From: Candidatus Hydrogenedentota bacterium
Lineage (GTDB): Bacteria > Hydrogenedentota > Hydrogenedentia > Hydrogenedentales > JAEUWI01
Direction: 5' to 3'
Length of the DNA stretch: 64,000 nucleotides
Assembly: GCA_034669905.1 (NCBI GenBank)
Contig: JAXMOL010000021.1
Coordinates: 32,001 to 96,000, forward strand
This document shows positions 57,962-61,591 of the stretch, one piece after another (positions within the stretch are counted from its first letter, which is position 1; the number at the start of each line of letters is the position of its first letter). The notes below the pieces were generated by a model. It ran no database searches. It had not been told where the DNA came from and was given only the letters and a program-made list of their open reading frames with translations. The position numbers and the translations under genes were made by a program.

Positions 57962-58280
57962 ACTCCTACCTCCAAGGTGGGCTGTGGGGTGCAACCGTTG
58001 CGCACCCCGCGCCATCCAGAATAGCAGATTTCCCATCGAGAGTCCCAATCGCAGTCCACGACGATCTCATGAAAAAGCGTAACGAATGGAGACAGATTTC
58101 GCGTCGCGCGATCTTCACCACACGAGTCGAAAGGACGTTGCTGGGGTTCGTTTGCTTGGAGCACAGGGGCGCTGAGCGGTTAAGGGATTGCCCGGGACGC
58201 GCGCCCGAGTTGAATCAGGATACGTTTAATGCAGTGGCCCTGAATCGCGCGCAGTGCTTCTCGGCGCCGCGAAGGGACCA

Positions 58281-58316
58281 AAAATAAAAAACGCTGCGCG
58301 CGAAATGCGGGCAGCG
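58281..58316 (-). terminator. Intrinsic terminator of the 35-aa sORF
   Basis: CGCTGC..GCAGCG hairpin followed on the minus strand by a T-rich tract. Confidence 0.7.
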
Positions 58317-58341
58317 GTAGGTGCAAGACGGCTCTTCGGAA

Positions 58342-58449
58342 CTAGAGGTTGACCCCGAAGAAGCTCAGGAAGACAATGAGTGCTTCGAAGATGTTGATGA
58401 ATTGCGTGATCTCTGCGATGAAGGCCAGCAGTTGGTCGAGTACAGTCAT
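58342..58449 (-). CDS. Unannotated 35-aa hydrophobic/amphipathic small protein
   Basis: MTVLDQLLAFIAEITQFINIFEALIVFLSFFGVNL*; AAGGAG RBS; mostly C/G third positions; terminator 25 nt downstream. Confidence 0.7.
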   Translation of the reverse strand: MTVLDQLLAFIAEITQFINIFEALIVFLSFFGVNL

Positions 58450-58779
58450 GGTAAATCAAGGCTCCTTGTTAGCGTAATGTGGGTTGCAGGGGACACCCGC
58501 TCGCTGGGTCCACCTGTTAAGACTACGGACGGAACACCGTGGGCATCAAACGAGGCCCTATGGTACCAGTCCCCCGTAGTAGATTTCACTACCGATGTGC
58601 ACGGCCGCAGTCGTCGTGGCGGGCGGTGTGAGCGGTAACACCGACGTTGTCCGCTGGCGGACGCTTGAAGCGGCGAGGCGTTCCAGGTTTCTCAGGGGGG
58701 GGGGCTGGAACCGGTTGTGCGCCCCTTGCTATCCTCCTGTAGTTTTACCAAATCAAGGGCGAGGAGTCTTTACCCTGCT

Positions 58780-59571
58780 ATGAAGCGATTTCAACTGGTT
58801 GAGCTGGAGGACCTGCCATGGTTCCCCAGGCATCTTCGTGATTACATTACAGATTTTCTTCGTTTTGTGGTGGGGCAGATGGATTTCTACGCCGCCATTC
58901 CTTCGTTGGTGCTCCGTGGGCTTGGGAAGGGGCCATCGTCGCAGATTGTTGATCTCGCATCTGGCGGCGGCGGGGGATGGCCATCTCTGATAGCGCGGGT
59001 GCGCGAGCTCCGTCCAGACGCTTCCGTAATTCTTACGGATCGCTATCCGAATCTTCGGGCTTTCGAGCAACTGACGGCCCAGGCCATCCCAGGTCTGGCG
59101 TGTTGTCGAGACGCTGTCTCCGCGACGGCCGTCCCCGCTGACATGAAAGGCATGCGGACGCTGTTTCTCTCTTTTCACCACTTTTCGCCTGAATTGGCGC
59201 AGGGTATCCTGCAGGACGCGGTAACGAGGGGCGAGGCAATTCTGATTGTGGAGATACAAACCCGTAGCCTCGGCGATTTCATGAAGCACCTGTTGTCTCC
59301 GTTGCTTGTATTGATTGTCACACCTTTTATTCGCCCCTTTCGTCTGGGACGTCTTTTTTACACCTACGTGGTGCCCCTGTTGCCCCTGGTGCTCTGGTGG
59401 GACGGCGTGGTATCGGTGTTGCGAAGCTATCGCGTGGACGAGTTGGAAGCAATGGTGGGCCGACTGGAAGGTGGGGAGCACTATGCCTGGGAGATGGACA
59501 GGGACGATTCCGGGAGGGCGCCGGTGCATTATTTGTTGGGTGTGCCCCAAGGGCGGGATGGCGCTGCGTAA
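58780..59571 (+). CDS. Class I SAM-dependent methyltransferase
   Basis: IVDLASGGGG, LTDRYPN, SFHHF, WDGVVSVLRSY; GAGGAG RBS. Confidence 0.85.
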   Translation: MKRFQLVELEDLPWFPRHLRDYITDFLRFVVGQMDFYAAIPSLVLRGLGKGPSSQIVDLASGGGGGWPSLIARVRELRPDASVILTDRYPNLRAFEQLTAQAIPGLACCRDAVSATAVPADMKGMRTLFLSFHHFSPELAQGILQDAVTRGEAILIVEIQTRSLGDFMKHLLSPLLVLIVTPFIRPFRLGRLFYTYVVPLLPLVLWWDGVVSVLRSYRVDELEAMVGRLEGGEHYAWEMDRDDSGRAPVHYLLGVPQGRDGAA

Positions 59572-59848: not shown

Positions 59849-61591
59849 TTACAGGGAGCTGAAGGCTTTCTGGAAGCCCGTTTCACCTTCCATGGCGACC
59901 TGACGTTCGGCGAGGGCCTGGATTTTTTCTTCAAAGCCTTCCACGCGGCTGGCGACGATCTTGTTCTCGATCTCCGTCTTCGCGGCGGGGGAGAGGTCTT
60001 CCATGAAGCCCCAGGCGGGATCTTCGCCCGTACCCTGGTTGGTGAATACGCCGATGTTCTTACCGTCGAAGGTGCGGTAGCTGACGCTGTGGTTGCCGTT
60101 CATGACGCATTCGGCCCACTTCGTTACGCGGGAACCGTAGGAGTCAATGACAGGAATCTTGCTGTAGAAGTATTCCTGCGACTGGGAGATGGCCAGTTCT
60201 TTCAGGTAGAGGCTCGTGTAGGCTTCCTGCAGGGCAGGGGCAACCCACTTGGCACCCGCTACCTGATCGCGCAGGGATTCTACGGCCGCGATGCGGGCAT
60301 TGCGGTCATACTTCTCCGGGGTCAGGGGAAGACCTTCCTTGATCTGAATGTAGAGGCGATCCACCGCGTGTCCCAAGGCTTCCTTGGTGGCGGCCCGGCG
60401 GGCGTCGGCATCTTCAAGCTGTCCAACCTGATTGGTCAGTCGCTCAACTTCGGCCGAGAGACCGCGCTGACGGGCTTCCGTGATGGAGAACTGATTGTTA
60501 AGCGTTTCGAACTCTTCGTTCCGCGCAACAAACAGGTCGTTCTTTTCGGAAAGCTCGGATTCGGTCCGCTGGAGAGCCGCTGTCTTTTCGGAAAGCTGAG
60601 ACTCCGTTGCAGCAAGTTCCGCTGCCGCTGCCTGAACATCGGTCTTCAGCTGCTCGAGCGCTTCGGGAGAGATGTCCTGAGCGACATCCGGGTTGATATC
60701 CCGGTAGGTCTCGAGTTCACGTTCCAGTTTGCTGACCTGACCATTCAAGCGGGTGACACTGGACTCTGCTTCGGCAAGTTTTTCCTTACTGGGATTCGGG
60801 AGGAATCCGAGCATGTCGGCGGCGTAGGGGCCGGCCACAATACCGATAATCAGGGCAATCACGGCCGCGATGACCAATGCGAGGGGGCTACCGCCTTTAC
60901 CACCGGAAGGCTCGGAAGCCGCCGGCATGCCGCCCATAGGCGCCCGCATGTCGGTGTCGGGGGAGAAGTCGGGTGCCGGGGTGCCCGCTGCGAAGGAAGG
61001 CGCAGCGCCTCCACCGCCGAAGGCGCCCGCATCAAAGCCGGGCTGGTCGCCGCCGCCCTGACCAAACATGGGGGTTTCCATGGCCTGGGTCGGAGCACCG
61101 GTACCCGTGCCGCTACCAAAACCGGAACCGCTTCCGCCACCAAAGGCGCTGTCAAACATGGGGGTGTCCACGTTCGAGTCGGGTCCCGGTCCAATTTCGG
61201 GGGTTTCGGGTGAGAAGTCGCTGTCGGCGGCCAGATCCTGGAATCCGGAGCCCACAGGACTCATGCCTTCGCTCGGCGTATGTCCGGCGGGCGTATCGAT
61301 GCCGGGCGTGCCTGAGGAGAAGGTGTCGGTGACCGCGCTGTCAAAGCCGGGGGGCTTTGGTTTCACGTTGCCGCCGGTGGGCTGGGGTGTTTCCACCTGG
61401 ATGTCGCTGATGGGGGGCAGGCCCGCGGAATCGGATGGCGTGCCACCCGAATCAAAATTACCTAATGGAGGCAAGCCACCATCGGAGTCCATGCCACCCG
61501 AATCGAAATCACTCAAGGGCGGTAGATTGCCCAAACCGGAATCGCCTGGAGTATCTAGATTGTCTTCGGGTTCGTTTTTGTCTTCAGCCAT
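59849..61591 (-). CDS. Bitopic membrane protein: acidic low-complexity N-terminus, TM, coiled coil, C-terminal globular domain
   Basis: About 260 aa G/P/D/S/T-rich with LPP repeats, TM LALVIAAVIALIIGIVAG, heptad-rich region; GGAG RBS. Confidence 0.8.
   Translation of the reverse strand: MAEDKNEPEDNLDTPGDSGLGNLPPLSDFDSGGMDSDGGLPPLGNFDSGGTPSDSAGLPPISDIQVETPQPTGGNVKPKPPGFDSAVTDTFSSGTPGIDTPAGHTPSEGMSPVGSGFQDLAADSDFSPETPEIGPGPDSNVDTPMFDSAFGGGSGSGFGSGTGTGAPTQAMETPMFGQGGGDQPGFDAGAFGGGGAAPSFAAGTPAPDFSPDTDMRAPMGGMPAASEPSGGKGGSPLALVIAAVIALIIGIVAGPYAADMLGFLPNPSKEKLAEAESSVTRLNGQVSKLERELETYRDINPDVAQDISPEALEQLKTDVQAAAAELAATESQLSEKTAALQRTESELSEKNDLFVARNEEFETLNNQFSITEARQRGLSAEVERLTNQVGQLEDADARRAATKEALGHAVDRLYIQIKEGLPLTPEKYDRNARIAAVESLRDQVAGAKWVAPALQEAYTSLYLKELAISQSQEYFYSKIPVIDSYGSRVTKWAECVMNGNHSVSYRTFDGKNIGVFTNQGTGEDPAWGFMEDLSPAAKTEIENKIVASRVEGFEEKIQALAERQVAMEGETGFQKAFSSL

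Follow-up and report, generated by a model that had tools for sequence, protein, structure and literature searches.

A conserved gene for a 35-residue acidic amphipathic peptide in Hydrogenedentota, possibly a leaderless membrane or surface peptide that bundles with itself

A 64,000-nucleotide stretch of a Candidatus Hydrogenedentota bacterium genome (assembly GCA_034669905.1, contig JAXMOL010000021.1, positions 32,001 to 96,000; hereafter the window, lying in genome G000) holds a short minus-strand open reading frame at positions 58342-58449 which, judged by sequence comparison among relatives, is a real, conserved and stand-alone gene. Its 35-amino-acid product, leaderless, acidic and amphipathic, is referred to here as peptide A and its homologs as family A. 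As a small-protein family it is new and has no name yet, and it belongs to a repertoire of peptides not described before; its function is one that we infer. The reading we favor, to which we give a probability of roughly 40%, is that peptide A acts as a leaderless, self-bundling membrane- or surface-active peptide, analogous in its working to the staphylococcal phenol-soluble modulins (PSMs) without being a member of that group. Among the options listed in the initial annotation of this locus, a "polymerising or surface peptide" would suit it best.

As first annotated, the frame running from 58449 to 58342 encodes a peptide with three acidic residues (D/E) and no K/R, and an AAGGAG Shine-Dalgarno (SD) motif (58467-58462, minus strand) stands 12 nt upstream of its ATG. 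The terminator claimed at the same time was also recovered on the minus strand (58280-58316), with a single predicted direction, as a hairpin (58316-58292) followed by a U tract (-15.5 kcal/mol, z -4.2, equaled by 0 of 200 shuffles); a strict terminator scanner, which listed no terminators, missed this hairpin. Ahead of the gene, an extended -10-like box (TG.TA[AC]CAT, 58560-58568, minus strand, with the -10 hexamer at 58565-58560) is found at -97 to -116 from the ATG in all eight genus genomes, preceded by 18-19 nt in the same eight by a similar -35-like hexamer (58584-58589, minus strand), and both boxes are kept while the remaining leader diverges. Together they would form a sigma-70-type promoter, with transcription predicted to start at about 58553 and, given the terminator, to yield a monocistronic mRNA of ~270 nt on which the SD is probably open enough. 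An SD-like motif precedes 21/21 orthologs and a terminator-like element follows 17/21 on the sense strand; the start is fixed behind the SD in all 21 genomes, with the initiator methionine first and no cleavable leader. Codon use in the peptide A gene showed no resemblance to that of ribosomal proteins (p 0.85), and this comparison found no signature of high expression, while its F, I, N and Y codons end in C rather than U at 12:1, a bias that the ribosomal genes of G000 do not have.

Iterated profile searches in which every match was inspected placed family A in 21 of 135 genomes of the phylum, namely, eight of nine in the genus, five of six others in the family and five of six in family f10, plus G022, G025 and G081. 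Among the genus relatives, a DNA search detected the gene in 4/8 and protein profiles in 7/8; in G006 (93% complete, 580 contigs), neither peptide A nor its flanks were found. The product has 35 residues in 15 of the 21 genomes and 29-36 in the rest. Distant members were accepted at E values of 3e-5 to 0.04 together with an ATG, an SD and the expected length, and a shared neighbor (a glycosyltransferase, a DUF1549-type gene or a methyltransferase) backs them except in G025, G035, G036 and G081. Matches that fell inside long proteins, such as one of ~670 aa that recurs in many genomes and those in G023:C53, G037:C41, G072, G108 and elsewhere, were left out of the count, as were short frames lacking a start (G074, G015 and G039). 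When 1.84 billion representatives were searched with a profile, 10 proteins of the same build came back, nine without a name and one called "hypothetical." The gene is a single copy kept vertically at one locus, and no sequence paralogs were found in G000. Comparison of homologs, which the initial annotation had proposed as one of its checks, indicates a conserved reading frame under purifying selection: dN/dS was 0-0.26 in 16 of the 17 estimable pairs (of 28 within the genus) and 0.68 in one, which rests on three differences, with silent sites saturated in 11/28 pairs. In the genus alignment, the first, second and third codon positions vary in 23, 8 and 34 of 36 columns, respectively. Frame conservation, dN/dS, the SD, the promoter-like motif and the terminator thus bear out the earlier description of a stand-alone small-protein module.

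Genes around peptide A change between relatives. In the window, its neighbors are a divergent gene for a 263-aa protein (58780-59571, plus strand) and a DUF1549/DUF1553 gene downstream. The 263-aa protein had no match in Pfam and a weak one to PRK06202; a glycine-rich, methyltransferase-like motif was noted in it by eye, and its gene also adjoins peptide A in G004 and G007. A 580-aa protein encoded at 59849-61591 (minus strand) begins with an extended N-terminal region that is acidic and rich in Pro and Gly, and also has a single hydrophobic segment and a coiled coil; its Pfam matches were all below cutoff. Elsewhere, a Pmp3-family proteolipid gene lies immediately upstream of peptide A on the same strand in 7/21 genomes (G003, G001, G002, G008, G010, G013 and G014), as checked with Pfam PF01679 for G003 (L020:1751-1915) and by eye for the other six; it is absent beside peptide A in G000, G004, G005 and G007. 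Positions 58099-58164 carry a dispersed repeat of ~65 nt with 12 matches in G000, six in G007 and none in 19 other relatives searched. This repeat, which is not adjacent to other peptide genes and has no tie to peptide A, looks like a lineage-specific MITE/REP-type element.

The AF2 model of peptide A is a single helix over residues 3-30 (pLDDT 90). All 28 aligned family A sequences are net negative and 22 have no K/R; they are strongly hydrophobic (GRAVY 1.2-2.0, best 19-residue Kyte-Doolittle mean 1.6-2.3). No residue is invariant among them and the acidic positions are not fixed; what is invariant is the pattern itself, in which polar residues return every 3-4 positions over the entire helix. 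The helical hydrophobic periodicity that had been claimed for this peptide was confirmed by its maximum amplitude (0.55 versus 0.29 in shuffles, p 0.0002; p 0.047 at a fixed 100 degrees). On the Fauchere-Pliska scale, the peak of the polar stripe lies at 105-107 degrees per residue in every member, a 3.4-residue period (104-107 on Kyte-Doolittle), which counts as one observation rather than 28 since the members are kin. At 98 degrees the amplitude was 0.36 of its maximum, and patterns simulated at 98 or 100 degrees were recovered at 97-101. Plotted at 106 degrees, columns 2-31 split into a polar or mixed arc from 44 to 194 (~150 degrees) and a hydrophobic one spanning ~200 degrees. According to PMC4786415, a straight helix has 3.63 residues per turn, a lower period reflects left-handed supercoiling and 3.33 is an assumed limit. 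As its polar period of 3.4 residues falls below 3.63, peptide A helices may pack against one another in a bundle rather than lie flat on a lipid surface. A complex prediction with four copies scored 0.19, giving no answer either way.

A composition scan and a profile revealed seven further stand-alone acidic hydrophobic ORFs in G000, all with SDs and 30-48 aa long. One is a peptide of what we call family B (G000:C15:31129-31242, L031), between trxB and a Cys-rich gene; the others lie at C11:90231 (minus), C45:19089 (minus), C37:34233 (plus), C1:176637 (minus), C77:20050 (plus) and on C20, ending at 96140 (plus). When five peptide sets were tested in five genus genomes, four were present in 5/5 and the C77 set in 3/5, with two weak matches to the latter representing the C20-type paralog. 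Family B itself occurs in 7/8 genus genomes and in 39/135 genomes by a single-protein query, while its profile matched 74/135, also catching other leader-bearing peptides. Among 72 homologs, those with names are hypothetical proteins, six labeled Hydrogenedentes/Hydrogenedens and one FCB group. Most lineages of family B have a basic leader, and in nine genomes the member at the same trxB-side locus starts with its methionine at the core. Tandem family B genes occur in G010 and G022. In G010 (G010:C31, L132:1006-1822), four consecutive genes for amphipathic peptides of 33-40 aa adjoin a carboxypeptidase-like gene, and two of the four are followed by terminator-like hairpins. Many orphan peptides with the same basic leader were seen far from the peptide operon described below (L177, L179, L180, L182, L183, L184, L185 and L186); that at L177 has a His/Asp-rich tail and sits beside a metal ABC transporter-like cluster.

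Families A and B have the 106-degree geometry in common, and B is alone in sharing this peak with A, the five non-B sets tested peaking at 92-100 degrees. Sequence kinship between the two is plausible, at somewhat less than even odds. In an ungapped register, peptide A and leaderless B share 11 identities over 31 positions; hhalign gave a probability of 44%-48% over 3-24 columns, and HMM cross-scores were 11.3 versus 6.0 and 12.7 versus 8.0 bits (real versus pattern-kept shuffles), with reversed B at 10.5. The ungapped profile test, from which five B rows lacking the anchor motif were left out, returned p 0.16 and a best pair of p 0.13, and reversed A scored equally high.

On another contig of G000, unlinked to the peptide A gene, the C9 operon encodes five small ORFs with basic leaders, two GNATs, a CPBP protease, an ABC ATPase, a permease and a SPASM-type protein with a weak GNAT match. 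Type V transporters rank first against the model of this permease (pLDDT 74), with PmtD at rank 15, all at E > 0.001; on these generic matches, the permease would be a type V-fold exporter. The operon shares with peptide A its genome and small helical hydrophobic cores, and family B links the operon leader to stand-alone peptides: in 6 of the 16 regions fetched, small ORFs preceding GNAT genes matched the B profile, which did not match the peptides of G000's own C9 operon. The C9 peptides carry a basic leader at the N terminus that ends in a P-x-x-A-type motif, whereas 21/21 genomic family A members lack it; of 13 operon-linked cores, with peaks between 89 and 120 degrees, none has its peak at 106; and the kinship of A with B is not statistically shown.

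Searches of Pfam, NCBIfam, PHROGs, PDB sequences, Foldseek and the ESM Atlas gave no usable match for peptide A, the ESM Atlas scores of 0.77-0.80 falling inside the shuffled range. A literature search on Hydrogenedentes small proteins, RiPPs, amphipathic or PSM-like peptides and CPBP/GNAT systems, covering titles and abstract openings with few subscription journals and no supplements, found nothing on these peptides. Each staphylococcal genome is described as encoding several PSMs, which are short, helical and amphipathic, leaderless and encoded apart from their exporter (PMC9974410, PMC9171771, PMC12607899); that exporter, PmtCD, is reported as a type V ABC transporter taking PSMs from the membrane, into which they partition (PMC9974410, PMC7527219). 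PSMs also form cross-alpha tubes according to PMC9171771, and PMC12607899 reports that they are still turning up as unannotated small ORFs. Peptide A likewise begins at its initiator methionine with no cleavable leader and is predicted to form an amphipathic alpha-helix along its length, and elsewhere G000 encodes a putative type V-fold transporter that may export helical peptides. Unlike PSMs, family A is almost devoid of K/R, has a wider hydrophobic arc and a 3.4-residue period, comes from an unrelated phylum and, at 29-36 aa, falls between the length classes given for PSMs (alpha, 20-26 aa; beta, ~45 aa; PMC9974410, PMC9171771). PSM sequence families did not match peptide A; the best hits came from one relative, with E 0.025 for PF19693 (PSMdelta, 10 residues) and E 0.18 for NF033392.

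If peptide A does act as a self-bundling membrane or surface peptide, a formyl-methionine start would spare it any leader removal, and the hydrophobic arc of ~200 degrees would drive both membrane entry and helix-helix packing. The peptide would then self-associate in left-handed bundles and have a structural role in the envelope or at the surface. Its export, the weakest step of this proposal, might use the putative type V ABC exporter encoded in the C9 operon; leader-bearing family B peptides would pass through it too, once cleaved by CPBP and acylated by GNAT. Several observations speak against this favored reading. Peptide A is more hydrophobic than a free surfactant needs to be; its codon use is not ribosomal-protein-like; and the exporter is unlinked to its gene, with fold matches at E above 0.001. 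Hydrogenedentota cells, moreover, are built with two membranes, and no outer-membrane exit was identified.

Small membrane accessory and regulatory proteins are common, and peptide A could be an inner-membrane subunit or regulator whose helix packs on a larger membrane protein. Its single, vertically inherited copy, the constancy of length and a best 19-residue hydrophobicity in the range given above agree with such a role, which we consider unlikely but still a serious contender: a pattern conserved with no invariant residue, the 22 of 28 sequences that lack positive-inside residues, neighbor genes that change between genomes, and polar residues recurring throughout the helix all count against it. 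A homo-oligomeric pore or ion-leak modulator, in which bundles span the bilayer and the acidic stripe lines a cation path for the cell itself, would make sense of the 28-residue predicted helix and its narrow acidic/polar stripe of left-handed period, and of the Pmp3-family gene directly upstream in a third of the genomes (7/21). This neighbor, however, is missing from four genomes including G000, the acidic positions are not fixed, and the leader and SD analysis described below detected no tight translational control, so that we regard a pore as distinctly improbable. Pmp3/YqaE proteolipids (PF01679) are themselves small, hydrophobic, acidic membrane proteins, but peptide A has no PF01679 match and one predicted helix, in contrast to the Pmp3 hairpin. 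The same leaderless, membrane-seeking helix might instead serve as a bacteriocin-like antagonist of other microbes, as the several different peptides per genome (including the four-gene array in G010) might suggest. Leaderless bacteriocins are typically cationic, though, whereas family A is net negative in 28/28 sequences, evolves slowly and vertically, and has no immunity or export gene beside it; an antagonistic role appears very unlikely.

Less probable still is a type I toxin kept silent by the structure of its leader and by an antisense RNA, or a riboswitch-controlled gene; toxin/antitoxin function and riboswitch control had both been raised in the initial annotation. The two hairpins described there can indeed be drawn, on stretches chosen post hoc. 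That at 58487-58516 (minus strand, in the predicted 5' UTR; -13.6 kcal/mol, z -2.0, 5/200 shuffles) has a counterpart at a similar place in G007 and is not alignable across the genus. The ACTACGG/CCGTAGT stem at 58522-58580 (minus strand; z -1.5, 14/200 shuffles) is not conserved beyond G007 and probably has no function as an RNA element: 68% of leader shuffles contain a perfect inverted repeat of 7 bp, and the ACTACGG arm (58580-58574) falls between the -35-like and -10-like boxes and is therefore predicted to be untranscribed, the start at about 58553 placing both this arm and the inner GGGC arm upstream of the transcript. The leader as a whole is not unusually structured, contrary to what had been proposed (z +0.63 for 58440-58720; z +1.1 for the predicted UTR, 58447-58553), and no leader structure was conserved across relatives. 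Predicted UTRs in 20 relatives span 25-123 nt (z -1.5 to +1.7), lengths that follow from the best -10-like site and, outside the genus, from best-of-scan picks; the SD unpaired probability ranges from 0.05 to 0.83 in these relatives, with no common structure. Across 21 orthologs, SD complements in the leader extend to no more than 4-6 nt, there is no conserved anti-SD, and antisense terminator-like sites occur over the leader in 2/21 and at the 3' end in 2/21, none of them in G000; an Rfam search of the locus gave no match below E 1. Owing to these variable, unstructured UTRs, the missing anti-SD, the rarity of antisense terminators and the lack of an Rfam match, neither the toxin/antitoxin nor the riboswitch proposal found support. 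Peptide A does resemble membrane-associated type I toxins (Ibs, ShoB, TisB, ZorO and Fst/Ldr) as a short hydrophobic helix of less than ~60 aa with its own promoter and terminator, and the genus has a predicted UTR of ~100 nt. Most type I toxins have positive C-terminal residues according to PMC8309996, which lists IbsC, ShoB and DinQ as exceptions that, like most of family A, do without. PMC8594479 treats SD/anti-SD pairing as a key determinant for the mRNAs of type I toxins, one that T1TAdb uses, and peptide A has no conserved SD-sequestering structure or conserved antisense unit; it is, besides, a single vertically inherited copy with no match in Rfam, Pfam, NCBIfam or PHROGs. The gene is also very short, as a chance ORF or artifact would be, a reading refuted by the conservation data, in which the pattern across codon positions, the dN/dS values, the fixed start and stop codons, the SD and the terminator all hold across genomes whose flanks diverged.

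Hydrogenedentota are known almost entirely through metagenomes, and family A opens the way to a set of hidden genes for amphipathic peptides that numbers at least eight in this one genome. Within family B, the leader-present and leader-absent versions at one locus provide a natural test of whether formyl-methionine can replace RiPP processing. A broader and rather speculative possibility, which we consider unlikely, is that these genes form a phylum-wide system of anionic helical peptides. Formyl-methionine (A) and leader removal with N-acylation (B and the operon) would then be interchangeable routes to the same N-capped product, a type V exporter would deliver the peptides to the envelope, and members with the 3.4-residue period would polymerize into tight left-handed bundles or tubes. 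If true, this would be a modulin-like coat or surfactant that evolved independently in an uncultured phylum far from staphylococci. Should the peptides prove to be exported and to assemble, modulin-like biology would extend far beyond staphylococci, and they would offer natural helices near the lower limit of the coiled-coil period that could be tested with cheap synthetic peptides.
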